Below are positions 2,758 to 25,332 of a stretch of 32,000 bases of DNA, in pieces. The translations under genes were made by a program, and so were the position numbers. Where the stretch lies: the IMG/VR virus record IMGVR_UViG_3300032770_000004, positions 47,375 to 79,374 of that record; one strand, written 5' to 3'. Every line of letters begins with the position of its first letter. Within the stretch, counting starts at the first letter, position 1. This stretch comes from a virus. The notes under the pieces were generated by a model. It ran no database searches. It was not told the DNA's origin and was given only the letters and a program-made list of their open reading frames with translations.

Positions 2758-2939
2758 TTCTCAAAGAGCTAGGAGACGAACGGCATTTCGTACTTGTCAA
2801 TGACGAGCATCCTGTCCGTAGGCTCTATCAACGCAGCGGCGTGCATCCTATCTCCAAAGAGCTTGTTCGTGCTGTCGATTCGACTGGTGCGATCACCTAT
2901 TTTGATGACTCTGTAGAGATCATCTGGGTGCGGATATGA
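2754..2939 (+). CDS. hypothetical protein
   Basis: ORF track; ATGA overlap with the upstream gene. Confidence 0.6.
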   Translation: MILKELGDERHFVLVNDEHPVRRLYQRSGVHPISKELVRAVDSTGAITYFDDSVEIIWVRI

Positions 2940-3142
2940 TCCATTTCATTGAGATCTTCTACTTGGTATTGTCAGTGGCATGGATGATTTGCTTTATCTT
3001 GTCTGGCATTGCCAATGGTGGAGATGTCGGAGAGCCGTTCTTCTGGTTCGTGGTGATCGTACTTGGATTTCTCTGGCCCCTGTGGACAGTTCACCTTGTA
3101 TCCCGCGAAATTTGGTTTGTACTCAAAGACCTTAGACGATGA
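2936..3142 (+). CDS. small membrane protein (2 TM)
   Basis: ORF track; ATGA coupling; two long hydrophobic segments. Confidence 0.65.
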   Translation: MIHFIEIFYLVLSVAWMICFILSGIANGGDVGEPFFWFVVIVLGFLWPLWTVHLVSREIWFVLKDLRR

Positions 3143-3243
3143 CAATCTTTTTAAACGCTCTGATCCTCTTCGCTATTCTCACGATTGTCAATGGGTTTAC
3201 CGCTAGTGTAGTTGCTTTGATTGGCAGGATATGGAGAAAGTAG
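3139..3243 (+). CDS. 34-aa hydrophobic peptide
   Basis: Absent from the ORF track because it is under 60 aa. ATGA overlap with the upstream stop. Translation MTIFLNALILFAILTIVNGFTASVVALIGRIWRK. The next gene starts 1 nt after its stop. Confidence 0.45.
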   Translation: MTIFLNALILFAILTIVNGFTASVVALIGRIWRK

Positions 3244-3244
3244 G

Positions 3245-3538
3245 ATGATCTACGGCTACAAGCTCTTCAGGGTCAAGAAGGACGGCACGCTTACCAGCTT
3301 GTTCATCAACAAGAAGGTGGCCCTGGCTGTCGGTAAGTGGCTCAAGGCACGTCCGTACAGAACTCCTGGATTCGCCTTTCGTCCTGGCTGGCATGCCACC
3401 ACTAGGCCGCACGCTCCCCATTTGACAACTAAGGGTCGAGTGTGGAAGAAAGTAGCTCTGAAGGGCGTAAAGAAGTTCTATCGGCCAGCTCATGAAGGTA
3501 GTGTGTGGTATCTGGCTACACAGATGAAGATCCTATGA
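3245..3538 (+). CDS. hypothetical basic protein
   Basis: GGAG lies 8 nt upstream of ATG 3245. The ORF-track start at 3221 would overlap the peptide gene. Confidence 0.65.
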   Translation: MIYGYKLFRVKKDGTLTSLFINKKVALAVGKWLKARPYRTPGFAFRPGWHATTRPHAPHLTTKGRVWKKVALKGVKKFYRPAHEGSVWYLATQMKIL

Positions 3539-3723
3539 CAAACGATCAAGCCAAACCTTTGGTAGTTATTATCGTCTTGCTGTTCGTCCTTTGGTGGGGC
3601 ATCCCTATCGCAATGGAATTGCTGTGGGGACCTAGCCGAGAGGCCGCAGTCGCGTTCGCGGTCGGTTGGATCCACCTTGCTGTAATTGGCCCTTACATTC
3701 TCTCTAGGATTCATTCCAAATGA
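3535..3723 (+). CDS. small membrane protein
   Basis: ATGA overlap at 3535; two hydrophobic helices. Confidence 0.6.
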   Translation: MTNDQAKPLVVIIVLLFVLWWGIPIAMELLWGPSREAAVAFAVGWIHLAVIGPYILSRIHSK

Positions 3724-3765
3724 CCGATGTTTCCACTCAGATATACGAGATCTTTCGAACTCGAT

Positions 3766-3794
3766 TTGACATCAACCTCGTTACGTGATACGGT
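3766..3794 (+). promoter_or_regulatory. sigma70-type promoter, predicted leaderless
   Basis: TTGACA 3766-3771, 17-nt spacer ending in TGa, TACGGT 3789-3794, then 6 nt to ATG 3801. Confidence 0.55.
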
Positions 3795-3800
3795 ATCGTC

Positions 3801-3971
3801 ATGGACAATCAAACCAAGTCGATTGAAGTGAGTTCTGGCGGTCTTGGCATCGGTTCTGTCATCGCTGCCATCCTTTCGTGGACGACCAACCACTCGGTTC
3901 TGTGGTGTATTCTCCATACCCTGCTCGGATGGCTCTACGTGGTTTTCTGGCTGTTCGTTCACAAGCTGTAG
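3801..3971 (+). CDS. 56-aa membrane protein
   Basis: Absent from the ORF track. Translation MDNQTKSIEVSSGGLGIGSVIAAILSWTTNHSVLWCILHTLLGWLYVVFWLFVHKL. Has its own promoter. Confidence 0.6.
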   Translation: MDNQTKSIEVSSGGLGIGSVIAAILSWTTNHSVLWCILHTLLGWLYVVFWLFVHKL

Positions 3972-3979
3972 GAGAACCT

Positions 3980-4186
3980 GTGGACCCGTCTGACGCCATC
4001 TGCGTACTGGTCATTCACGAAGGTGAAGCTCATAGCGCCGAAGAGGCGTTGCGTTTGGCCAACAAGCTCTTACAAGACAGAAAGGATGAGATCGCCCACC
4101 TGGAAGTAGTGACCAGATACGTCTACCGACCTATAGAACAAGTACGTTACCTTGTCAGAGCGACAAAGAGGGAGAAGAAAATATGA
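3980..4186 (+). CDS. hypothetical protein
   Basis: GTG 3980 is preceded by AGGAG, directly after the stop of the previous gene. The ORF-track start at 3878 would overlap that gene. Confidence 0.5.
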   Translation: MDPSDAICVLVIHEGEAHSAEEALRLANKLLQDRKDEIAHLEVVTRYVYRPIEQVRYLVRATKREKKI

Positions 4187-4353
4187 AGAAGCGCCCCATA
4201 GTCATCAATCTCCAGGCCGAAATCCTGGCCAGGGTTCTTCAACTTGGCGGAAAGTCGATGGTTGCTGATGGTATCGTCACAGTCGAGATGCCCGATGGCA
4301 ACGTCTGGGATTTTACGTTGCCACAGGTTGTCCAGAAAGGTCTGAGCAACTAA
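4183..4353 (+). CDS. 56-aa hypothetical protein
   Basis: Absent from the ORF track. ATGA overlap, GGGAG upstream. Translation MKKRPIVINLQAEILARVLQLGGKSMVADGIVTVEMPDGNVWDFTLPQVVQKGLSN. Confidence 0.55.
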   Translation: MKKRPIVINLQAEILARVLQLGGKSMVADGIVTVEMPDGNVWDFTLPQVVQKGLSN

Positions 4354-4355
4354 AG

Positions 4356-4361
4356 TAAACT
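4356..4361 (+). promoter_or_regulatory. -10-like TAAACT 6 nt upstream of a tRNA 5' end
   Basis: Same geometry as TAATCT before the tRNA at 171. No convincing -35 element. Confidence 0.35.
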
Positions 4362-4367
4362 GTTGTC

Positions 4368-4451
4368 GTATCGTTGGCATGTCTGGTGATTGCGCCCGCC
4401 TGTTAAGCGGTGAGCGAAAGCTCTAGGAGGGTTCGATCCCCTCACGATACG
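4368..4451 (+). tRNA. 84-nt type-II-shaped tRNA with GUU (Asn) anticodon
   Basis: Perfect acceptor GTATCGT/ACGATAC, 3-bp D stem with 11-nt loop, anticodon stem CCGC/GCGG with loop CTGTTAA, variable arm GAGC-GAAA-GCTC, T arm GAGGG-TTCGATC-CCCTC, discriminator G. Confidence 0.7.
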
Positions 4452-4463
4452 AGGAGAAGAACA

Positions 4464-4817
4464 ATGAACGGCTGTTTGACAGAAGAAGAGTACAAGAACA
4501 TTCAGATCGGAGACGAGTTTGAGATTCTTTATGATGGTTGGGGATATGGATGGGAACCGGGAACCGTCTTTGTGGTGTTTGAATTCCATCCAACGGAGCG
4601 TACTCCTAGAATTCGTAGTTTGAGTTCCAACAGTATTGGAGCATTGGCCAAGACTACAGCCACGGAGGTTGATCCCCATTCTCACAAGCCATACATCAGG
4701 CGCATTGTCAGGAATGACATCGTTTTGATTGAGATCGATTCTGGCGGCCGTTTGACAACATGCTCGATTCCTGCTAAGGATTTTGACCCGAAGAAGCACA
4801 AGAAGTTTACATTCTGA
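4464..4817 (+). CDS. hypothetical protein
   Basis: GAGGAG lies 7 nt upstream of ATG 4464. The ORF-track start at 4410 lies inside the tRNA. Confidence 0.7.
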   Translation: MNGCLTEEEYKNIQIGDEFEILYDGWGYGWEPGTVFVVFEFHPTERTPRIRSLSSNSIGALAKTTATEVDPHSHKPYIRRIVRNDIVLIEIDSGGRLTTCSIPAKDFDPKKHKKFTF

Positions 4818-12725: not shown

Positions 12726-13136
12726 ATGTTACTATCAGCTCGAATGCTTAAAGACGTTGCGAACGTCAACGTATGGGAACCAGATACGCAGCTCAGTTGG
12801 ACTGAAGGCGATCAGCTTACCATCTACTTCCAACTCGTTGATATGTCGGTGGATAAGCCAGACCAAGGCTTCAATCCGCCTGGACGTCGTTACGTTCCTG
12901 CATCCGGTGCTACTCTCTCAGTCACTCTAGAGAACATTGACCAAGCCAAACAGCTAACTCGTTTTGCTGTACAGCCCTTTACTGGCGACGGAAGCATTTG
13001 GTCTCTTTCCATCATGAGCACCGATGTCATTCGTGGAACACCTCAGATGCGTCTCACTCTGACTGAAGGTGGCGTGGTCACTCGCGGTCTAGCCAAGTGC
13101 TCGATCAAGATTTGGCCCCAGGAGAACGTGACCTAA
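12726..13136 (+). CDS. hypothetical protein, possibly virion-associated
   Basis: ORF track. First gene after an intergenic gap that carries GTAATCT. Confidence 0.65.
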   Translation: MLLSARMLKDVANVNVWEPDTQLSWTEGDQLTIYFQLVDMSVDKPDQGFNPPGRRYVPASGATLSVTLENIDQAKQLTRFAVQPFTGDGSIWSLSIMSTDVIRGTPQMRLTLTEGGVVTRGLAKCSIKIWPQENVT

Positions 13137-13981
13137 TGGCATCTGATTACTCTAACAGCAAAGGCTTAAATGCCCCTGGCGTATATCCCGAAAACGCAGT
13201 AGACGCCGAGCTTCAGCGTCTAGAGCCCATCATCGGATTCGACGAGATTGTCTCCCGACACCTCTTCGGCATTCCCATGGTTAGCTACATGAAGGATCCA
13301 ATCACCGGCAAGAACGCCGTGATGACTCCAGAAATGGTCAAAGACATCATTGATGGAGCTGTACAGCAGGCCGAGGTTGAATGCAAGATTGACATCAGCC
13401 CCGTCAAGAGATCCGAAAAGTATCCGTTTGACAGGCATCTCTATGACTCCTACGGTTACTTCCAGGTCTTTCACCGTCCTGTCACTAGCATTACTAAGAT
13501 TTCGGTAACTCCTGCCAATCAGCAAGACGTTTACATTCTTCCTTTGGACTGGGTTGAAATGGGAAACATCATCCGTGGGCAGATTAATATCATCCCCATG
13601 ACAGCCGCCTTCATTCAGGGTGGTTACATTCCTGCCGGTTCAACTGGAGGCGCCTTCTTCTTGGCGATTCTCGGTAACCGAGCCTGGATTCCTGCATACT
13701 GGCAGATTGACTACACGAGCGGCTATCCTGATGGAATGGTACCTCGTATTGTCAACGAGCTGATCGGCACTATCGCAGCTCAGGAAATCCTGAGTATGCT
13801 AGCGGCTACCTATCGCATTTCATCCCACAGCATGGGTCTAGATGGCATGTCACAGAGTGTCTCACAGCCAGGACCCCAGATTTTCCAGGTGCGAATTGAA
13901 GACTTGGAGAACAAGAAAAAGCGCTTGACAAATCGTATCAAGGCGCTATATGGCCGCAAGATCTACACCTCGTCCTTGTAA
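13136..13981 (+). CDS. hypothetical protein, probable virion structural protein
   Basis: AGGAG SD; TAATG overlap at 13136. The structural role is inferred from context only. Confidence 0.65.
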   Translation: MASDYSNSKGLNAPGVYPENAVDAELQRLEPIIGFDEIVSRHLFGIPMVSYMKDPITGKNAVMTPEMVKDIIDGAVQQAEVECKIDISPVKRSEKYPFDRHLYDSYGYFQVFHRPVTSITKISVTPANQQDVYILPLDWVEMGNIIRGQINIIPMTAAFIQGGYIPAGSTGGAFFLAILGNRAWIPAYWQIDYTSGYPDGMVPRIVNELIGTIAAQEILSMLAATYRISSHSMGLDGMSQSVSQPGPQIFQVRIEDLENKKKRLTNRIKALYGRKIYTSSL

Positions 13982-13987
13982 GGTGCC

Positions 13988-14240: not shown

Positions 14241-17024
14241 ATGTCAGCAACAAAGGACAAGCGAAAGGTCGCTAGTGTCGCCGTTATCCACGGCGGCAGG
14301 TTGCTATGGCTTTTGCGTGATGATTCCAAGAAGCTCTGCCTTCCTGGCGGCAAGTTTGAGGAAGGCGAGGAACCTCTCGACGCTGCTGTCCGTGAACTGA
14401 AAGAAGAGACCGGCATCGACGCTGAGCCCAAAGAGCTAGAGTTCTTGGGCAGCGAGAACGTGCCCGGTACCAAGCTCCACGTCTATTCGTTTAAGTATGA
14501 GCCAGAGAAAGCTCCCGAAATCGACCTTTCCAAGGATCCAGATAAGGAAGCGTGTGGCTATCACTGGTTCGAGGAACTTCCTTCTGAGGAAGAGCAATTC
14601 GTACCACAGGAGAGGAATGTCACGCTGCGTCTCCTTGGAATGGCCGTTCAAGACCTGAACAAGATGGCCATCAAGGACATTCGACCAGGACCAAAAATTG
14701 GATCCGACCGCATCTTTGACTATTCCCATATCCATCCTGGCTTGACAATTCACGAAATTCCCTTTTCGGACAAATGGCATCATCCTCATGTATTGGTAGC
14801 GAACATTCAACATGATCCTGAAAATTACTCGGAACAGTCGAATGTAGAAGGTACCCTCCTTGCGAACGGAATTCATGGTATTCCCGATCTGAATTTTACT
14901 TATTCGGAAGTTCATCCTGAACATCGAGGCCAAGGAATTGGCCGTAAAATGTATGAAGCCCTGATGGCACATGCGCTTCATAATTACGGCACTACCAGGG
15001 TTGTAGGCGGCCTTCACAGCACGCTAGCTCACGAAGCCCACAAGAAGCTATCTCAGAAGCACGGGTTTGAAGGCTATGACCCCAAACCCAATTGGGATCC
15101 AGAGTTTGAAGAGGAGCCTTTTCGCGGTCCATTCAATGATGCTTACGGAAAGTACTCCTATACCATCAAGTCCGAAAGCCTAGCTAAGTCTCAGCCAGAA
15201 TGGCGATCCAAGGATGGTCTGAAGATTCCTAAGAGTGGCACGCCTGCGCGTAAAGATTGGGATAAGGAATACCACAAGCGCCTTGTTGACGTATTCGCTG
15301 GTGGCGACAAAGAGCGTCTTAAGCTCGTGAAGATTCCGGTTACTCCAGCTCTTTCTGGAACCAATTTCGCTGGCAATAAGGATCGCTTGAATCTCTACTC
15401 TCGCATGATTCGTGGCGGCGACAAACTGCCTCCTGCTGTCGTTAAGCGTAATGGCATCGGCTGGCATGTCGTGGATGGCAATCATCGTGCCCAGGCTGCC
15501 TTGAATGCCCAGGTTCCCGAAATGCTCGCGTACGAGTTGATTGATCCTCCGAAGATGAAGAAGGCCGAAGAACCCTTCAAGGGTCTGGCCGAGCATATTG
15601 TTGGCTCGCTGACTGATGATTTACGAAAGCCCAAGTATAAGGGTCACGAGAACCCACTCGCAGGACACTGCTACGTCGCTTCAGAGGCTCTCTGGCACAT
15701 GTTGGGAGGCCCCGATAGTGGCTGGGTACCCCAGACAATTCGGCACGAAAACGACACGCACTGGTACCTGAAGCACAAGGACACCGGCAAGATTCTAGAT
15801 TTGACAGCTGGTCAGTTTAAGACACCAGTTCTCTACGATAAAGGTCGTGGTTGCGGATTCCTGACCAAAGAACCGTCGAAACTAGCCAAGGAATTGATCA
15901 ATCGAATCAACGTTCGACGCGCCCAGAAGAACGATCCAACCCTGAAGAAGGGTGTTCCTGGAGCTATGCTCGCAGCTGGTCTTTTGGCATCGCCTATTCA
16001 CACCGATGTGATGAAGCAGCCAGAACCAAAGGTCCAGCAACAACAAGTAGCTGCCTGGACTCCTGATGGACTAGATTCAGACCTAATTCCAATCGCTCAT
16101 CTGGAATCGAGCTTTGGCAAGAACATCAATCACGCTCCCAACCCAAAGGGCGAGTATTACACCGCTTACGGTGCCGTTGGCATGAAGCCAGTGACAGCCC
16201 ATGAAGAGTACAATAAGAATCAAACCCTTCAGAAGCTCTATCCGAACCTCAAGGATCCTGCTGAATTCATGAAGGCGATGAAGACTATCCCCCGCTTCTA
16301 CAATCTATTGGCATCAACACACTTCGCCCGGATGAAGCACCTCCATGGGTCTGCCGCCAAGGCCGCCTATGCATGGAGGCATGGCCATACTGCCGCTATG
16401 GGCGCATCTCCAGAACAAATTGACAGCGACTTGTATGTCCAAAAGTACCGCCATCTTGCGTCTCAGGCAGGTCTACAGAAAGGTGAGGACTTGATGAAAG
16501 CGATCAGCGACCTAAAGCCCGGTAAGCCAATGGATTTTGGGGTCGATTCTCAGTACTACGATTACAGCCATCTATTGGGATCTCCTGTTCTCAAAAAGAA
16601 GTACAAAATCATCCTCGCTCAAGCTCCCAATAGCTATCGTAATGGCCATCACCTCGAAGCCAAGATTTTCCATAGACCACCAGGAATGAGCAAAGAACAG
16701 GCGGCCGATTGGACTAACTGGCAGAACATTGGTCACCTTAGAAGCAATACAGCCGGACGGTTACTTTACCCATCAGTGGCCAAGTTAGATCCAGCCCATC
16801 AAGGTCGTGGACTAGGCAAGGCCTTGTATCTCGCTACTTTCAAGCACGGCCAGCACTTCTTAAAGACCCACACCATTGCCGGTGAAGTTCACAGCTCCAT
16901 GGCCCATCGTGTCCACGAATCAATCGCCAAGGAACACGGTCTCGCCTACAATGCCCACAAGTACGGACCAGAGATTGGCCCGAATGATGGTGCGTACGGC
17001 GAATACGAATACGCCCTGAAATAA
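14241..17024 (+). CDS. 927-aa polyvalent multidomain protein (NUDIX, GNAT-like, ParB-like, SLT-like, GNAT-like)
   Basis: Perfect NUDIX box GKFEEGEEPLDAAVRELKEETGI. GNAT motif A-like HRGQGIGRKMYEAL and HQGRGLGKALYLAT. ParB/sulfiredoxin-like VVDGNHRA. SLT-like LESSFGKN...AYGAVGMKP. GAGG SD. Confidence 0.85.
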   Translation: MSATKDKRKVASVAVIHGGRLLWLLRDDSKKLCLPGGKFEEGEEPLDAAVRELKEETGIDAEPKELEFLGSENVPGTKLHVYSFKYEPEKAPEIDLSKDPDKEACGYHWFEELPSEEEQFVPQERNVTLRLLGMAVQDLNKMAIKDIRPGPKIGSDRIFDYSHIHPGLTIHEIPFSDKWHHPHVLVANIQHDPENYSEQSNVEGTLLANGIHGIPDLNFTYSEVHPEHRGQGIGRKMYEALMAHALHNYGTTRVVGGLHSTLAHEAHKKLSQKHGFEGYDPKPNWDPEFEEEPFRGPFNDAYGKYSYTIKSESLAKSQPEWRSKDGLKIPKSGTPARKDWDKEYHKRLVDVFAGGDKERLKLVKIPVTPALSGTNFAGNKDRLNLYSRMIRGGDKLPPAVVKRNGIGWHVVDGNHRAQAALNAQVPEMLAYELIDPPKMKKAEEPFKGLAEHIVGSLTDDLRKPKYKGHENPLAGHCYVASEALWHMLGGPDSGWVPQTIRHENDTHWYLKHKDTGKILDLTAGQFKTPVLYDKGRGCGFLTKEPSKLAKELINRINVRRAQKNDPTLKKGVPGAMLAAGLLASPIHTDVMKQPEPKVQQQQVAAWTPDGLDSDLIPIAHLESSFGKNINHAPNPKGEYYTAYGAVGMKPVTAHEEYNKNQTLQKLYPNLKDPAEFMKAMKTIPRFYNLLASTHFARMKHLHGSAAKAAYAWRHGHTAAMGASPEQIDSDLYVQKYRHLASQAGLQKGEDLMKAISDLKPGKPMDFGVDSQYYDYSHLLGSPVLKKKYKIILAQAPNSYRNGHHLEAKIFHRPPGMSKEQAADWTNWQNIGHLRSNTAGRLLYPSVAKLDPAHQGRGLGKALYLATFKHGQHFLKTHTIAGEVHSSMAHRVHESIAKEHGLAYNAHKYGPEIGPNDGAYGEYEYALK

Positions 17025-17027
17025 CCC

Positions 17028-17033
17028 TAATCT
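17028..17033 (+). promoter_or_regulatory. TAATCT element 8 nt upstream of ATG 17042
   Basis: Lies in the 17-nt gap between the two giant genes. Confidence 0.35.
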
Positions 17034-17041
17034 AGTTAGGG

Positions 17042-19168
17042 ATGGAAGACGGAATTGAGCAGTTACTACAGGTAGATGATCCGATTGAGCGCAAGCTTGC
17101 TCTCAAGTCGAAGATTGTCGAGCCTTATCATCTTCGAATGGCACTCATGGATGAAGATCCAGATGTTCGCCTTGCCGCAGCCAAACATCCCAGTCTCACG
17201 CCAGAACTGATTAAGGAAGTCTTGCGTGGTGATGACAAATGGCTAGCAGAGCAGATTCTTCAACGTCCTGATTTGCGCCCAGAAGAGCTTGAGCACGCTT
17301 TAGCCGATCCAGACCTTAGGGGAACCGCAGCCAAGCATCCAGCGCTCTCTGAAGCCCAGCGGAACGCCTTAATCGAGGATCCTGAGACCCCAGACGGAGC
17401 CAGAGAACAGGCAGCCCAGGGCCTCATCAAGAACATTGGCGTGTTGACATATCCGCAGCTCGGTGAAGGCCGAGCCTATTCCATGCCGATGATTATTGAC
17501 CACCGTCCTGATGACAATATTCGTGGAACTACTGTCTACAACGCTAAGCGTACTCAGCCGATGAAGCCGGGCCAGGGTTATCTCTATAGCCACACCTCGG
17601 GCCATAATCCACAGGCCGAGCATGCTGGTGAAAGCCACGAAGCACAGCACATTCTCTTTGCCAAGCTTAAGCAGCGTTTCGGCCGCGAGGCTGGTTATCG
17701 CATCATCGCCAACACGCTTGCCGGTCTTGACCATGAGCATCGCCAGCATGTCTTCAATCTTCTGGACGCACATAAGCCCAAGTCTGCTCAGGATCCAATC
17801 CAGCGACCGGAAGAGGCTATTGCATATCTCCACAACTACCTGATGGATCCAGACCATCGACGCCAAGTTCATGTCAATATGCGTATCAGCCAGAACATTA
17901 ACGCCATGCGCGCGAGCGTGCAGAAGGCACGTAAGGCTTGGCATATGCTACGTGCTAGAGCTGAGGCTCTACGTCCAGAGGAAGTGGGCGTGCAGGTCAA
18001 GAAAGACGAACAGGTCATCGGTGATTGGGTTGAGAAGCTCAAGAAAAGCCAAGACGTTGATGATCCAAAAGTTGCAGACCATGTCGGAATGGACATGAAG
18101 CTGCCTGTTTTGTTACAGGCGGTCAAGTTCCTAACAGGCAAGGAGTTGGATCCAAGCATCGTACGACGCCATCTTATTGAGCAGGACGATGACATGAAGG
18201 AAGCCGTTCTTGCGGCAGCCGGTTTGACATCAAAAGAAGAACGCAAAGCTTTTGATGCCATTATGGATTTAGCTGAGCTGAATAAGTCTGAGGCAAAAGT
18301 AGACGCCAAAGACATTCAGGCACTTCTACCAGAAGATGAGCCTGTCGCTAAAGAAGTCCGCTGGTCATTCCAGCACGGAGAAGTCAAACCCGTAAAGCTC
18401 GGCGGTAAACACAGTAAGGGCACGTTGCTAGCAAAGGATTCAGACGGTCGCCTGCTTCTAATCAAGCCTGGATCCGGCAAGATTTCGCCAATCCGTGGAG
18501 CGCGCGAGGAAAAGGCCAATCAATCCCGTCGCGAGGCTGCATTCTCGTCTGTGGCTCGTTCTTGGGGTTTCAATCGTACTGTCCCTAGGGCTACGCTTCT
18601 AATCATCGATGGCAAGGAAATGGCGGTTATTGACATGTTGCCTTTGGATTGGTCGAATCTTCACAAGACTCGCATGGTGGATCCAACCGTTCCACAGAAG
18701 GCACTACGTGACTATCTAGACAGAGGTATTGTTCACAAATGGGCCGTGCTCGATTATGTACTCGGCAATGGAGATCGCCATGGTATGAACATGATGGTAT
18801 CGCCAGCCGATGAAAATCACAAGATCGCTCTCATTGACCATGGGTCGGCATTTGCTGGTTCTTCATTTGATCCTGGCCAGGACAAGAGCGCCTTTGTGCC
18901 CTACTATCTGCGCGCCTGGGGTCCACAGAAGGGCTTCATGAAGCTTAGCGAGAAGCAAAAGCTCGATACGATGCCCGTTCTTCACGAAACAAAGGATTTC
19001 GAACTACGAGATTGGATCGTCAAGCTCTCTGAAGAGGAGCTTGCTGCCCGTCTTCACCGTTTTGGCATCAACCCAGAACCAAGCGTTGAGCGCCTAAAAG
19101 CACTCAAGAATGCTGTGGCTCAAGCCAAGAGCGCGTCGCGTGTAATCAACGAGTTCTGGATCAAGTAA
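17042..19168 (+). CDS. 708-aa protein: N-terminal LRV/HEAT-like repeats plus C-terminal PI3/PI4-kinase-like catalytic domain
   Basis: Repeats DPDVRLAAAKHPSLTPELI and DPDLRGTAAKHPALSEAQ. Catalytic loop LGNGDRHGMNMMV at 18764-18790, and IDHGSAF at 18833-18853. Confidence 0.8.
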   Translation: MEDGIEQLLQVDDPIERKLALKSKIVEPYHLRMALMDEDPDVRLAAAKHPSLTPELIKEVLRGDDKWLAEQILQRPDLRPEELEHALADPDLRGTAAKHPALSEAQRNALIEDPETPDGAREQAAQGLIKNIGVLTYPQLGEGRAYSMPMIIDHRPDDNIRGTTVYNAKRTQPMKPGQGYLYSHTSGHNPQAEHAGESHEAQHILFAKLKQRFGREAGYRIIANTLAGLDHEHRQHVFNLLDAHKPKSAQDPIQRPEEAIAYLHNYLMDPDHRRQVHVNMRISQNINAMRASVQKARKAWHMLRARAEALRPEEVGVQVKKDEQVIGDWVEKLKKSQDVDDPKVADHVGMDMKLPVLLQAVKFLTGKELDPSIVRRHLIEQDDDMKEAVLAAAGLTSKEERKAFDAIMDLAELNKSEAKVDAKDIQALLPEDEPVAKEVRWSFQHGEVKPVKLGGKHSKGTLLAKDSDGRLLLIKPGSGKISPIRGAREEKANQSRREAAFSSVARSWGFNRTVPRATLLIIDGKEMAVIDMLPLDWSNLHKTRMVDPTVPQKALRDYLDRGIVHKWAVLDYVLGNGDRHGMNMMVSPADENHKIALIDHGSAFAGSSFDPGQDKSAFVPYYLRAWGPQKGFMKLSEKQKLDTMPVLHETKDFELRDWIVKLSEEELAARLHRFGINPEPSVERLKALKNAVAQAKSASRVINEFWIK

Positions 19169-19399
19169 TTATCTCTCGTTGGCGTCGTACCAGAGGGCAC
19201 CACCGACAAATGCGCTAACGACGCCAACTACCACGCCGATCCCGACCGCGAGCACCGCGCCGTCACCACTCCAAGCGACTCCACCGACGAAGCTAACTGC
19301 TCGACAGAACAGCACGAACAGCGGACCCATTGCGAGCCCCAGCGCGATCACGAAGATCGTGCCGATCCACTTCAGGTTCAGATTGATGTTGAGATGCAT
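19169..19399 (-). CDS. small Gly/Val-rich membrane protein (2-3 TM)
   Basis: ORF track. Its stop abuts the + strand stop (TAATTA). About 59% GC by hand count, visibly above the flanking sequence. Confidence 0.6.
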   Translation of the reverse strand: MHLNINLNLKWIGTIFVIALGLAMGPLFVLFCRAVSFVGGVAWSGDGAVLAVGIGVVVGVVSAFVGGALWYDANER

Positions 19400-19402
19400 G
19401 GC

Positions 19403-19759
19403 TTAAATCACCTGGGTAGAGGTCTTCTCGGCCTTCTCGGCGGCCTTGATCGCCCTGTCGAATGCCTTCAGAACCTGCTTCTTGGTGCGTCGCTTGTTAT
19501 CGTTCCAGGTTGGAATGGAGCTGGATTCACCCGCCCGATGGGGAATTACTTTCTCCAGGAAGGAGAAGGCAACGGTACTATGCTGCATGCCAGCCGCACG
19601 GAAGATCGCACCTGTTGCGCAGCATTTGGAAACAGCCCTGCTGTACTCGCTCACTATCCCACCCTTCTTATCAACAGCGTAGTGGCCCTGGCACCACCCC
19701 TTGGTTACGATCTTCTTGGCTTCTTTGAGAACTTCGACTGGTGTTTTGCTTTTCTTCAT
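19403..19759 (-). CDS. hypothetical protein (KGWCQGHYAVD...CCATGA motif)
   Basis: AAGGA SD; ORF track. Confidence 0.65.
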   Translation of the reverse strand: MKKSKTPVEVLKEAKKIVTKGWCQGHYAVDKKGGIVSEYSRAVSKCCATGAIFRAAGMQHSTVAFSFLEKVIPHRAGESSSIPTWNDNKRRTKKQVLKAFDRAIKAAEKAEKTSTQVI

Positions 19760-19831
19760 TTGGTTCCTTGATTGATTCAGTTGTTAGTACCGCAGCAGGC
19801 GCATTTTCTTTCGTACCATGAGAAGACCAAA

Positions 19832-19848
19832 ACCAACCAGTGGTTGGT
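19832..19848. other. 17-bp perfect palindrome ACCAACCA-G-TGGTTGGT
   Basis: Lies between two - strand genes. On the - strand it is followed by TTTGGTCTT, so it could be a terminator or an operator. Confidence 0.5.
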
Positions 19849-19880
19849 CACTCGTCGGCATTTCTTGCAAAAGAGCTGGA

Positions 19881-20084
19881 TCATCGCTCCTCGTTCCGTT
19901 CAATTTGACACAACACGTTGATTGCGGCCATGATCCAGTTGGCGGGAGCCGGACTAACCTGGAAGCTTTCCAGCTCCTCTCGGCACAACTGATTGAAAGT
20001 CTTGGGGTTAATGCCATCAAGTCCATATGCGAGTCGCTGGAGACGGGCATATTCACGACGGGCAGCTTCATAATTCAAGATCAT
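19881..20084 (-). CDS. hypothetical protein
   Basis: ORF track. Preceded by a promoter-like element with its ATG 6 nt after the -10. Confidence 0.55.
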   Translation of the reverse strand: MILNYEAARREYARLQRLAYGLDGINPKTFNQLCREELESFQVSPAPANWIMAAINVLCQIERNEER

Positions 20085-20138: not shown

Positions 20139-20453
20139 ATGACGAATATTCCAGCAGCGCAGATTGAACTCAAAAAGAAGATCGGTACCGCAAAAGGTAA
20201 AGACGTTTGGCACGTCAAAACTAAGGGCGGCTTGCACCTCATTACGGATTCTGGCGGCCGACTGCTTGGATCCGGTCCTCACCGTTCTGTCGCCCGCTTC
20301 CTGGCACAGAAGTTCGAGCCTGATGTAGTGTTCACCGAGCTAAGCAAGAGCGACCACTACGATTACGATGACTTCAAGCACCTCCTGCCCGAATACGAAG
20401 CTCTGACCGAACACATGCGTCAACTTCAGGAAGAAATGAAGAAGCAGGAGTAA
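20139..20453 (+). CDS. hypothetical protein
   Basis: The ORF-track start at 19818 overlaps the antisense genes, so I trimmed to ATG 20139, which follows GTAATCT. Confidence 0.6.
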   Translation: MTNIPAAQIELKKKIGTAKGKDVWHVKTKGGLHLITDSGGRLLGSGPHRSVARFLAQKFEPDVVFTELSKSDHYDYDDFKHLLPEYEALTEHMRQLQEEMKKQE

Positions 20454-20456
20454 CCG

Positions 20457-21404
20457 ATGGCTCGCCAGCCGGTAGAAGATATCCTCACAACGATTCCGCA
20501 GGAGCGGATCAGTTTTGACAACGACGCATTTGATGCGATGCTTCGTAGTCAGGGCGTGAAGCTTGTTCACTATCAGGCCATGCGCTGTCCGGTTGGAATG
20601 ACTGCACTCGATGACAATCGACGTCCACATGAGGACCATGCAGGTTGCACTAATGGTTTCATATACAAGAAAGTTGGTGTCATTACCGCGCTTTTTGTTG
20701 GCAACAGCAAGCACAAGAATCCTTCTGACCTTGGCTATTGGGATGGGAGCACTGTTCAGGTTTCATTTCCTCGCTATTATGATCAGGCTGAGGATTGTCC
20801 AGCTGATGACAAACAGGAAATTTTCGTAGCTCCGTTCGACCGCTTCTACCTACATGAAGAATCGATTGTGGTGCCGACGTGGCAGCTCTTTCTTCATCAT
20901 GAGTCTGGCATCGACCGCCTCAAGTATCCTCCGATTAAGGTTCAAGCTCTCATGGATTCTCAGGGGATCAGCTATACTGAGGGCGCCGATTTTGTCATGT
21001 TTAGCAATCAGCTTAAGTGGATTGGACGTCAACCCTCTGAGCAGATGACCGTAGGCCCAGGATTGACAACGGCTCTGGCGCCAGATGGCACGGACCCTAC
21101 TGACATTGCTGGAATCAACATTCAGAACTCTGGCGATTCTACGCGTGGCTCTGTATGCAGCGTGCGCTATCTTTATCGTCCGTTTTGGTATGTTGGCCAA
21201 ATCATTCATGAGATCCGCGTTACCCAGGAAACTAATGCCTATGGTGACCGCTCTCTTAAGCGTGCTCCCCAGCAGGTCATGTTGCATCGCGAATATGTCC
21301 CGTTGACAAAACAGGCCGATGAGCCTGGAAGTCCTGGAACGACAAGCTCTGACAGCTTCAGGCTCATGCCTGGGCCCGCTGATGGCGGCTTTGGCCCTAA
21401 GTAA
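20457..21404 (+). CDS. hypothetical protein, probable virion protein
   Basis: AGGAG SD; ORF track. Confidence 0.7.
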   Translation: MARQPVEDILTTIPQERISFDNDAFDAMLRSQGVKLVHYQAMRCPVGMTALDDNRRPHEDHAGCTNGFIYKKVGVITALFVGNSKHKNPSDLGYWDGSTVQVSFPRYYDQAEDCPADDKQEIFVAPFDRFYLHEESIVVPTWQLFLHHESGIDRLKYPPIKVQALMDSQGISYTEGADFVMFSNQLKWIGRQPSEQMTVGPGLTTALAPDGTDPTDIAGINIQNSGDSTRGSVCSVRYLYRPFWYVGQIIHEIRVTQETNAYGDRSLKRAPQQVMLHREYVPLTKQADEPGSPGTTSSDSFRLMPGPADGGFGPK

Positions 21405-23934: not shown

Positions 23935-24019
23935 TACCCTAGGAGAGATTCGGACTCTCAACCTTCCGGGTCATTACTCCGGCTGCTCTGGCCAATTGGA
24001 GCTACTAGGGCGAACTTCT

Positions 24020-24304
24020 TCAGTTCTTGAGGGTAATAGGATCGACCTCGTCCTCGGACTCGGGCTTGTCGCCTCCGCGCATCCTTTCGAACTCGGTCGG
24101 TTCAGGCATCGTGTTCACGAGTCCTTGCAGTAGGCTCTTGATGTTGTTGTGAACCTGGGGTTCGGCCGGGTGGAATCGATGCTTGTAGCACCACGTGCTA
24201 ATGGCGTCGACCAAATCGGTGGCAAGCTCCTGCATATGCTTACCGGATTCACCCCTGAAATTGCTGGCATCTACTTCTTGTACTACGTCTTTGGGATTGC
24301 TCAT
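24020..24304 (-). CDS. hypothetical protein
   Basis: ATGA overlap with the RNA ligase gene stop. Confidence 0.65.
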   Translation of the reverse strand: MSNPKDVVQEVDASNFRGESGKHMQELATDLVDAISTWCYKHRFHPAEPQVHNNIKSLLQGLVNTMPEPTEFERMRGGDKPESEDEVDPITLKN

Positions 24305-25332
24305 TTTTGTTCTCTCTTGAGTTGATTTGCTACCATTACCTCACGCATCCAATGAGCGTGGGTGGTCACGTGACCCTTACGAACGTATTTTCCCACGGAC
24401 TCTTTGAATTGTCTATAGGGAAACGACGACGCACTTCTAACTACATACCCTTCACATGGATCTCCTTGGTATTCCGGAATGTACAGGTTTTCGATTTTGG
24501 AGCGATCTCCGGGTCCGCGATAGAGCGTGGGAACCATTTGCAGCCCCAGCAACGCACACCATTCTACGGTCTCATCCCACGACAGAATTTCGTTCTTCTC
24601 GTTCCAGATGGAGAAGACCTGGAACCAGTCATCGAGATTGAGATAGTGGATACTGTGTTTGGCATAAAGGTTTTCGCCACAGATACGCCAGCCTTCGGGA
24701 ATCTCGTAAGAGATTCGACCGTGCAGAGATTTAACCCAGTTGCGGCTGGGGTGAGGCTCGTGAGTCAGCGAGCGGGCATGGATGAAGTCCTTGTACATGG
24801 TGGTATTCTCGCCATCCATCTTGATGGTAGCGATCACTTCTCGGCCCTTGAATGGATCGGGATTTGTCATCATTCGATCGTCTTTGGTGAGCCCAGGACT
24901 CCAAGGTAGATGATATGTACGAGGATACTTGACGTGCGTGGTAAAGAGAGTGAGAGCACCACCGTCTCCGAGAATCTTTTGAACGGACTGATCAAAGAAG
25001 AGATCACCACGCAATCTGGTGCCATTGGGAAGAACAGGATTCCCCCATTTGTCATAGATCTGATCGTTGTAGAGGTGCGGAGGCAGGATCGCCTTTCGAA
25101 TTCCAGCGGCCTCTCTGATCTGCTCAACCGAGAGCTTGGTCTGTTCAGCTTCCATATGATGAAGGCCGCACAAACTAGCACCGTTGTCCAGATAATAGCC
25201 CTCATCGGGCCATAGGCGGCGCTCGATAATGTGGTGAGCATCAACCGCTGGCGCCTTGCAAATGACGCACTGATGATTGTCGCGCTCGAAGACCCCTTCT
25301 CGGAATTGATCGCGAGTTTTAAGGTCGCTCAT
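24301..25332 (-). CDS. HNH domain fused to an RNA ligase (Rnl2/PF09414-like nucleotidyltransferase)
   Basis: N-terminal HQCVICKAPAVDAHHIIERRLWP...NGASLCGLHH. Ligase motif I is IKMDGEN; later motifs are ICGENLY, EGYVVR and GKYVRKGH. Confidence 0.8.
   Translation of the reverse strand: MSDLKTRDQFREGVFERDNHQCVICKAPAVDAHHIIERRLWPDEGYYLDNGASLCGLHHMEAEQTKLSVEQIREAAGIRKAILPPHLYNDQIYDKWGNPVLPNGTRLRGDLFFDQSVQKILGDGGALTLFTTHVKYPRTYHLPWSPGLTKDDRMMTNPDPFKGREVIATIKMDGENTTMYKDFIHARSLTHEPHPSRNWVKSLHGRISYEIPEGWRICGENLYAKHSIHYLNLDDWFQVFSIWNEKNEILSWDETVEWCALLGLQMVPTLYRGPGDRSKIENLYIPEYQGDPCEGYVVRSASSFPYRQFKESVGKYVRKGHVTTHAHWMREVMVANQLKREQK

Follow-up and report, generated by a model that had tools for sequence, protein, structure and literature searches.

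What a phage gains from a kinase of the PI3K/PI4K type placed among its virion genes is the question raised by a 32,000-nucleotide (nt) stretch of viral DNA, which was analysed as a whole and is called the window in the following (IMG/VR record IMGVR_UViG_3300032770_000004, positions 47,375 to 79,374 of that record). The gene in question (17042..19168, plus strand, called as an open reading frame (ORF) with an ATG start) encodes a protein of 708 amino acids (aa), and the identical protein (P0001) is called on public contigs of up to 169,962 bp. From the analyses described here we conclude that the product is very probably an active kinase of the PI3K/PI4K fold, which forms part of a polyvalent cassette. 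The function that we propose for it as a whole, i.e. a virion-associated cassette kinase phosphorylating host proteins, is a reading to which we attach about even confidence.

An AlphaFold model built from 30 homologues (mean predicted local distance difference test, pLDDT, 85.8) divides the protein into four parts, all of which, like the individual residues and motifs named below, are encoded on the plus strand. These are an alpha-solenoid resembling leucine-rich repeat variant (LRV) and HEAT repeats (17042..17422, aa 1-127), a middle domain with an HExxH motif (17423..18061, aa 128-340), a helical linker (18062..18301, aa 341-420, with model helices at 342-411) and an atypical kinase domain of the PI3K/PI4K type (18302..19165, aa 421-708).

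The initial annotation of this DNA, made from the sequence alone, had described the C-terminal domain as PI3/PI4-kinase-type rather than Hanks-type, and this description is borne out. The Pfam profile PF00454 (PI3_PI4_kinase) reached 38.4 bits (gathering cutoff 27.1). Its alignment is confined to residues 564-610, which extend from the catalytic loop to the DFG-equivalent motif, and a precomputed match to the same profile is carried by 36 of 46 homologues. When the predicted model was used as query in a Foldseek search against the PDB, ranks 1-34 were all occupied by PI3K, PI4K or PIKK structures, with E-values from 3.5e-5. The top group includes Vps34, PI4KIIalpha, p110 isoforms, PI3KC2alpha, mTOR and Tel1, and PI4KIIalpha (4hnd_B) gave the best template modelling score (TM-score, 0.50) as well as the best identity (19%). 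The first other kinase, CtkA, appeared at rank 35, and Fam20C and PRPK ranked lower too; the structure search thus places the domain with PI3K/PI4K/PIKK and not in an unrelated fold. Matches to the model were also obtained for PI3Ks of giant viruses and for phage proteins that bear the label 'PI3K/PI4K catalytic domain'. A sequence profile searched against PDB chains retrieved only PI3K, ATM and Tel1, with Tel1 as the best match (E=0.017), and no Pkinase-family match of the Hanks or T7K type was obtained in Pfam at E<=1. Fam20C was a weak secondary match by all three routes (Pfam E=0.011; PDB entry 4kqa, E=0.33-0.68; Foldseek rank 44). Predicted fold and profile match together place aa 421-708 in the PI3K/PI4K/PIKK structural class of the PF00454 superfamily. 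Within this class, Pfam detected neither a PIK accessory domain, although a helical bundle precedes the kinase in the model, nor a FAT or FATC domain; since these accessory domains are absent, the protein falls, by the tests applied, outside the lipid-kinase and PIKK subfamilies.

The active site was assessed in 185 family members. Between their kinase domains and that of the window, identity ranges from 37% to 100% (median 45%). The strings quoted in the initial annotation (RLLLIKPGSG, LGNGDRHGMNMMV and IDHGSAF) are all present, and the catalytic Lys, DRHxxN and DxG residues that it had proposed proved to be invariant or nearly so. K475 (18464..18466), the ATP-binding Lys of strand beta3 (LLLIKPGSG; strand 471-476), is found in 185/185, as are H457, G486, R497, E498, D578 and N583. 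E498 (18533..18535) lies in the QSRREA helix (494-507) and is presumably the partner of K475, as general kinase knowledge would have it. The catalytic loop D578-R-H-G-M-N583 (DRHxxN; 18773..18790, within LGNGDRHGMNMMV) aligns with its counterparts in PI3K, ATM and Tel1, its H580 and R579 being conserved in 183/185 and 168/185 members, respectively. D599-H-G (18836..18844, in IDHGSAF), the DFG-equivalent metal-binding motif, aligns with the IDLG/IDFG of Tel1 and PI3K, and both D599 and G601 are conserved in 184/184. Further upstream, a glycine-rich GGKHSKG loop (18401..18421, aa 454-460) is located between strands in the model and is likely to be the nucleotide-binding loop (G455 183/185, H457 185/185, S458 178/185, G460 183/185).

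Time and again, proteins with an atypical kinase fold have proved to perform a different chemistry, so that two alternatives to phosphotransfer have to be weighed: AMPylation or glutamylation, of the kind known from SelO or SidJ, and a pseudokinase whose role is purely structural. The GGKHSKG loop and the KPGSGK loop directly after the catalytic Lys, both of them invariant features peculiar to the family, are indeed unusual. However, the canonical phosphotransfer set is complete and invariant in the 185 proteins, with no hint of an inverted nucleotide site. Because the Lys, Glu, DRHxxN and DxG positions are all retained, the pattern is not that of a pseudokinase, and we regard another chemistry as highly improbable.

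Which substrate such a kinase would use is less readily read from the domain. The activation segment SAFAGSSFDPGQDKSAFVPYYLRAW (18845..18919) bears the family signature FDPxxDxxSFxPYYLR, with F609, P611, D614, P620, Y622, L623 and R624 conserved in 180-184 of about 184 members, and is the probable candidate for the substrate site. Residues 600-626 carry a mean net charge of -0.55, i.e. the segment is neutral to acidic. A lipid kinase, which would act on a host membrane lipid and thereby aid genome entry or envelope remodelling, could be expected from the closest folds, since these are lipid kinases and PI4KIIalpha is the best of them in both TM-score and identity. An invariant Trp (W706, 19157..19159, 181/181), three residues from an obligatory C-terminus, likewise recalls the membrane-binding C-terminal helix of PI3Ks, and the only cultured host of phages of this family is Myxococcus, a genus in whose group inositol lipids have been reported. 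Against a lipid substrate speak the charge of the activation segment, as the lipid-specificity loops of PI3Ks are basic, the best sequence-level matches, which are the protein kinases Tel1 and ATM, and the model, in which no membrane-binding segment is evident. Most bacteria, to our knowledge, lack phosphoinositides, which is a further but weak argument for a protein substrate. Lipid phosphorylation therefore appears quite improbable to us, and the likeness to PI3K is as yet no indication of a lipid substrate. The neutral-to-acidic activation segment and the protein kinases among the best sequence matches are in turn weak pointers to protein rather than lipid.

The family to which the kinase belongs is large, and its distribution is almost entirely viral. 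A full-length search of 5.8 billion clusters at 90% identity returned 46 relatives, among them the 'kinase' of Myxococcus phage Mx1 and fusions to NUDIX or GNAT domains. A profile of the kinase domain alone, searched against 1.84 billion representatives of clusters at 50% identity, retrieved 1333 proteins at E<=1e-3 and 411 at E<=1e-30. Searches with exact peptide patterns, which have limited sensitivity, yielded 35 loci on viral contigs, many of them on contigs of 160-180 kb, and one match in 185,579 species genomes of cellular organisms, which lies on a 17.7-kb contig of a metagenome-assembled genome with phage-like gene order; because of the exact patterns both locus counts are lower bounds. 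The earlier remark that a phage copy next to virion genes is unusual needs correction: the family is uncharacterised but, with its 411 clusters, not rare in phages, and several members already bear an automatic label as kinase or 'PI3K/PI4K catalytic domain'. One related contig (L005) carries near-tandem kinase paralogues of 399 and 632 aa (at 1385-2584 and 2803-4701).

Among the 150 best representatives, the kinase ends no more than 10 residues from the C-terminus of the protein in 141, and 62 are at least 1000 aa long, up to 2445 aa. These giant members carry an N-terminal NUDIX domain; one of them also contains PBECR5, a nuclease domain originally reported from polyvalent proteins. According to local hidden Markov model searches, the commonest architectures are the kinase alone, LRV-HExxH-linker-kinase (the type present in the window), linker-kinase and GNAT-kinase, and in 38 of the 185 proteins the kinase was the sole module detected. 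In other phages, NUDIX, GNAT and ParB-like modules are fused to the kinase in one polypeptide. The initial annotation had suggested that the kinase and the polyvalent protein encoded immediately upstream may form one effector module; these fusions, together with the same gene order in Mx1, strongly support this suggestion.

The surrounding genes show where this module sits. Upstream, a gene on the plus strand (13097..13981) resembles phrog_772 'tail fiber' and phrog_442 'head-tail adaptor' (PHROG E=6.7e-24), and downstream, also on the plus strand, lies a phrog_1004 'virion structural protein' gene (20457..21404, PHROG E=5.5e-11), which follows a conserved gene of about 104 aa (20139-20453). 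Among 35 other loci with a strong kinase match, a common order recurs on one strand: a gene of about 136 aa, the phrog_772-like gene, shuffled modules (NUDIX, GNAT, ParB-like, YunG-like and others), the kinase, the gene of about 104 aa and the phrog_1004 gene. The phrog_772-like gene was found upstream of the kinase in 23 of the 27 loci with at least 4.5 kb of upstream sequence, and the phrog_1004 gene downstream in 23 of the 30 whose downstream flank is 7 kb or longer. In Mx1, the genes run from the capsid gene through a NUDIX polyvalent gene (1479 aa) and the kinase (WNM70334.1) to the tail sheath gene, with further genes after the capsid gene and after the kinase. Taking the phrog_772-like gene as anchor, we compared 28 close loci with enough downstream sequence, of which 26 contain the kinase and 22 a NUDIX module. 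In distant phages, the phrog_1004 gene follows directly after the anchor (156-262 nt) and there is no cassette. Since the flanking genes are adjacent in these distant relatives, the cassette is a clade-specific hypervariable insertion, which separates two conserved virion genes in the Mx1-like myoviruses (about 160-180 kb). Its most constant member is the kinase, which closes it: it is the last searched effector module in all loci except one (L013), where a GNAT lies farther downstream.

This arrangement bears on whether the kinase acts on the phage itself and not on the host, with phage proteins of the cassette or the virion being phosphorylated as particles assemble or mature. Its position within a structural block of the same orientation, always beside cassette proteins and behind a 17-nt junction at which a scan found neither a promoter-like nor a plus-strand terminator-like site, is what such a role would predict. 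Related phages with adjacent flanking virion genes, however, have no cassette, so that it is dispensable for assembling that virion type, and the NUDIX, GNAT and PBECR5 partners are typical host-directed effector domains. We therefore consider a phage-internal role, too, to be quite improbable.

The recurrent NUDIX module points in another direction, namely to a small-molecule kinase that phosphorylates a hydroxyl on a nucleotide-derived or sugar-like compound, such as an immune second messenger or a derivative of NAD or ADP-ribose, in one pathway with the NUDIX hydrolase. NUDIX precedes the kinase in 22 of the 28 close loci compared above, many giant proteins unite the two in one chain, the weak secondary match to Fam20C fits, and kinases of this fold class that act on small hydroxyls are common (aminoglycoside and choline kinases, the xylose kinase Fam20B, and the PI kinases). 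On the other hand, four of the 28 loci (L050, L061, L062, L072) lack NUDIX despite having the kinase, and L057, which has a shorter upstream flank, is a fifth kinase locus without it; the kinase is the only module detected in 38 of the 185 proteins; where both are present, they lie at the two ends of the cassette, separated by shuffled modules; and no ligand-specific motif was identifiable. In sum, we hold a small-molecule substrate to be unlikely.

In the window itself, the upstream partner is a polyvalent protein of 927 aa (14241..17024, plus strand), identified by Pfam and PHROG matches. It consists of a NUDIX module (14268-14609), a first GNAT module (14862-15071), a ParB-like module with a weak match (about 15390-15560), a YunG/phrog_12251 module (15603-15908), a conserved module without assignment (16008-16535, aa 590-765) and a second GNAT module defined by the GNAT alignment (about 16566-17021), all on the plus strand; the NUDIX, first GNAT and YunG modules rest on Pfam/PHROG matches. 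These modules recur upstream of the kinase in related phages in shuffled order. The module at aa 590-765 (IAHLESSFG...AYGAVGMKP...AAYAWRHG) is found upstream of the kinase in 15 of the 35 related loci and has no Pfam or PDB match; the label 'SLT-like', which was given to it on account of AHLESSFG, whose Glu-Ser recalls lytic transglycosylases, had no Pfam or PDB support and was withdrawn. The GNAT module, present twice in the polyvalent protein, has the signature of a DYSHLL start, an HRGxGLG ... GGxHSxxAHxxHxxLxxKHG core and a Y-x-Y-x-[IL]-K end. Elsewhere it is fused to the kinase or encoded by a separate 129-aa gene just upstream (P0004, P0043, P0045; L003 7601-7990), and the order GNAT-then-kinase is constant whether the genes are split or fused.

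The 927-aa gene stops at 17024, which leaves the 17-nt gap before the kinase ATG that had been noticed initially (17025-17041). This gap is filled by the sequence CCCTAA-TCTAG-TTAGGG (17025..17041, plus strand), a hairpin with a perfect stem of 6 bp that abuts the ATG. As the hairpin reaches the ATG, there is no space for a normally spaced ribosome-binding site, and it may serve translational coupling or regulation. Promoter-like sites around the junction are no commoner than in shuffled sequence. In related loci, the corresponding gap is 10 nt (L003) or 146 nt (L004).

Apart from the kinase, the second domain with a conserved active-site-like pattern is the middle domain. The string HEAQH (17636..17650; H199-E200-A-Q202-H203, residues 199-203), noticed in the initial annotation as HExxH-like, is exactly where it was said to be and is a conserved motif, not a chance string. 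In 101 domain instances, H199 and H203 are conserved in 94/94 and E200 in 93/94, position 202 is variable (Q, L, F or M), and a Glu pair, E257-E258 (17810..17815), at the start of helix 255-268 is conserved in 94/94 and 93/94, respectively, which makes it a candidate for the third metal ligand. A model of the domain alone (pLDDT 85.2, predicted template modelling score 0.80) shows three strands (151-186), the HExxH helix (197-213), inserted helices and the helix with the Glu pair (255-268), in this order. The domain is found in 88 of the 185 family proteins, some of which have two tandem copies; the two-copy relatives P0095, P0131, P0112, P0105 and P0123 are giant, with one copy of the HExQH type and one of the HEDLH/HEEFH type. 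Searches of Pfam (with 20, then 26 members) and PHROGs as well as two sequence profiles against the PDB gave nothing significant for this domain, and Foldseek against the PDB gave a best E of 0.73, with the zincins 2y6i and 8t41 at E of about 3.6-3.8 only. Its topology fits the published description of the zincin-like core (PMC5512222). The invariant HExxH and Glu pair and this topology, set against the missing link to any known family, leave the domain as a candidate, and we think it rather likely that it is a zincin-like hydrolase without a recognisable family. Two other leads were followed and dropped. A match to Pol gamma-B (E=0.0018) turned out to be a 35-residue motif scored twice, as the PDB chain holds two sequence copies. 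The idea that the HExxH region is a degenerate GNAT, which arose when MAFFT paired the GNAT helix 'HS..AH..H..L..KHG' with 'SHEAQHILFAKLKQRFG' in GNAT-kinase fusions, was rejected after a profile-profile comparison gave 4.7% probability over 16 columns.

The N-terminus had been read initially as LRV/HEAT-like repeats, and here the repeats and the fold stand, whereas Pfam scores remain below threshold. Two copies of D-P-D-[VL]-R-x-x-A-A-K-H-P-x-L-[ST] are present (aa 38-52 and aa 89-103), and the AlphaFold model shows ten short helices between aa 4 and 126 (the first at 4-9, the last at 118-126) with a period of about 24-26 aa and block-mean pLDDT values of 86-97 up to residue 120. The Pfam profiles LRV (16.8 vs a cutoff of 21.6, E=0.0087), HEAT (14.2 vs 23.5, E=0.054) and LRV_2 (12.4 vs 27) all stayed below their thresholds; a precomputed LRV_2 match exists for some homologues and is marked faint for P0022. 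Phage models named 'Leucine rich repeat variant' superpose with TM-scores of 0.44-0.62, a root-mean-square deviation of 3.5-6.6 A and E=1.8e-3 to 5e-2. As judged from the model, aa 1-127 is an LRV/HEAT-like helical solenoid at the level of the fold. LRV-like repeats precede the kinase in 83 of the 185 family members, and the linker is found in 102, including the short stand-alone kinases; alignments of short-form homologues start at about aa 330.

Taken together, these observations suggest the following mechanism. The kinase protein would be made alongside the virion proteins and probably be packaged and ejected with them, and early in infection it would transfer phosphate from ATP to host proteins, by which a defence is disabled or host functions are seized, much as the unrelated T7 kinase acts. 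The LRV repeats could provide a surface for protein binding or targeting, and the HExxH...EE domain might be a zincin-like metallopeptidase that processes cassette proteins or cuts a host target. We propose host proteins as substrates because of the precedent of the T7 kinase and the general prediction made for polyvalent proteins. A more specific version, in which the virion-delivered PI3K-like clade acts while the DNA enters, is freed or activated by its own HExxH metallopeptidase and pre-emptively phosphorylates defence or housekeeping proteins of the host, is tentative and rather doubtful; if true, it would be a second, evolutionarily independent anti-defence strategy of the T7-kinase type, delivered as protein and not as an early gene. 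A variant with a bacterial lipid or an immune signalling nucleotide as substrate has a lower probability.

Several points weigh against this proposal and the class assignment on which it builds. The PF00454 alignment spans just 44 of 241 profile positions (134-177), the sequence matches to PDB chains are marginal (E=0.017 or weaker) and limited to the segment from the catalytic loop to the DFG-equivalent motif, and the Foldseek E-value is modest (3.5e-5) with a top TM-score of 0.50, obtained with a multi-domain model as query. NCBIfam and PADLOC searches gave no match for the kinase protein, and the HExxH domain lacks a known peptidase relative that could be detected by sequence or fold. Kinase activity, substrate and virion packaging are all predictions; protein, lipid, sugar and nucleotide substrates are indistinguishable from the present results, and the constant pairing with NUDIX could point to a small-molecule pathway instead.

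Further observations concern the edges of the cassette and the rest of the window. Where the window has just 20 nt (13967-13986) behind the phrog_772-like gene, another public contig of this phage (99.7-99.9% identical, with an identical kinase) has an insertion of 676 nt (L002 6270-6945) that encodes an HTH_7/Endonuclease_7 protein of 215 aa; the two thus differ by the presence or absence of a homing-endonuclease-like gene at the cassette edge. On the other side, a minus-strand island (19169-20084) interrupts the plus-strand block between the kinase and the next conserved gene; it contains ORFs for a hydrophobic protein of 76 aa, a DUF6197 protein of 118 aa (Pfam E=1.3e-20) and a protein of 67 aa, and Mx1 is without it. 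The window contains seven tRNA genes, five of which are clustered at its start (171-1145; Met, Gly-GCC, Gly-UCC, Trp, Asn), while a second tRNA-Asn (4367-4452) is unusually long with 86 nt and a tRNA-Ile (23935-24011, minus strand) has the rare anticodon AAT; Mx1 has 22 tRNAs. A protein of 343 aa encoded at 24301-25332 (minus strand) is matched along its entire length by an RNA ligase PHROG (E=1.2e-134). Many PHROGs of HNH endonucleases also match its first approximately 70 residues, pointing to a fusion of HNH and RNA ligase.

In comparison with known kinases, the domain shares with the PI3K/PI4K/PIKK group (PF00454; PI4KIIalpha 4HND, Vps34 2X6F, p110, Tel1/ATM) the bilobal fold, the beta3 Lys, the GxxDRHxxN loop, the (I/L)D-x-G motif, a preceding helical region and the position at the extreme C-terminus. 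It differs in that the similarity in sequence covers about 45 residues only, that it is phage-borne and that it has its own FDPxxDxxSFxPYYLR signature, KPGSGK loop and neutral-to-acidic activation segment. Compared with the PI3K and type III PI4K lipid kinases it has no PIK-domain match and no basic activation loop. The PIKKs (ATM/Tel1/mTOR) resemble it in lying at the very C-terminus and in a conserved Trp there, and Tel1/ATM are its best matches in sequence, whereas FAT and FATC were not found. The motif GNxDRH...(L/I)DHGxAF is shared with Fam20C, the Golgi casein kinase, but the window kinase scores lower to it than to PI3K/PI4K on every measure and below the cutoff in Pfam. Intracellular bacteria use phosphoinositide-kinase effectors as well, for example LepB and MavQ of Legionella, and there, too, a PI3K/PI4K-type fold occurs in a delivered effector of a prokaryote-associated element; the likeness is one of fold, and those effectors target eukaryotic phosphoinositide membranes, whereas the target cell of the window kinase is a bacterium.

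Polyvalent proteins are encoded beside virion genes; injection has been predicted for them, and the hub that recurs most often in them is a zincin-like metallopeptidase domain (Iyer et al. 2017, PMC5512222). The window protein combines a kinase with the HExxH domain and its homologues add NUDIX, GNAT, ParB-like and PBECR5 domains, in keeping with the strings of unrelated enzymatic domains beside virion genes, the shuffled order and the alternation of split and fused genes described for this class (PMC5512222). The placement among late or virion genes is likewise found, by the phrog_772 and phrog_1004 genes in the window and the capsid and tail sheath genes in Mx1. With the zincin-like metallopeptidases of polyvalent proteins the middle domain shares a three-stranded sheet followed by the HExxH helix, a conserved Glu on a later helix, inserted helices, occasional tandem copies and the polyvalent context; compared with known zincins there is no detectable similarity, and HExxH lies 53 residues away from the Glu pair. 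The kinases described in that study are zeta-toxin kinases and a truncated Ser/Thr/Tyr-type clade without C-lobe (PMC5512222), whereas the window kinase keeps the C-lobe and occupies the last position; the term 'PI3' is absent from its main text.

In the literature we found no study of the kinase family, its polyvalent context or the HExxH domain; the kinase is undiscussed in the Mx1 genome announcement and in the papers on polyvalent proteins, jumbo phages, NAD/ADP-ribose and T7K, and no virion proteomics data for Mx1 were found. The fold label itself pre-exists as automatic annotation (the Mx1 'kinase', and 'PI3K/PI4K catalytic domain-containing protein' in UniProt). We regard the kinase as a member of a large phage-specific PI3K-like clade that forms the terminal module of polyvalent cassettes, here together with the unassigned HExxH domain. 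The latter represents a separate lead with a confident model and no recognisable relatives, which may be a cassette-processing peptidase.

The closest functional analogy is offered by the T7 kinase (gp0.7, T7K), which disarms host defences by phosphorylating proteins (PMC13645617). T7K and JSS1_004, recently shown to be broad anti-defence weapons, are likewise phage-encoded kinases almost confined to phages; the analogy is functional only, as the window kinase belongs to a different, unrelated and much larger family and has a DHG motif where T7K has DPV. Should the kinase prove to be both delivered and active, host takeover by phosphorylation would extend far beyond the T7 group, and PI3K-type kinases, which are usually seen as eukaryotic, would gain a large viral branch inside bacteria. 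As Myxococcus phage Mx1 is a cultivable model, this question is directly testable. T7K is an early gene of small podoviruses, whereas the gene of the window kinase is part of the structural block in myoviruses of about 170 kb, and its product, unlike T7K, probably reaches the cell as protein.

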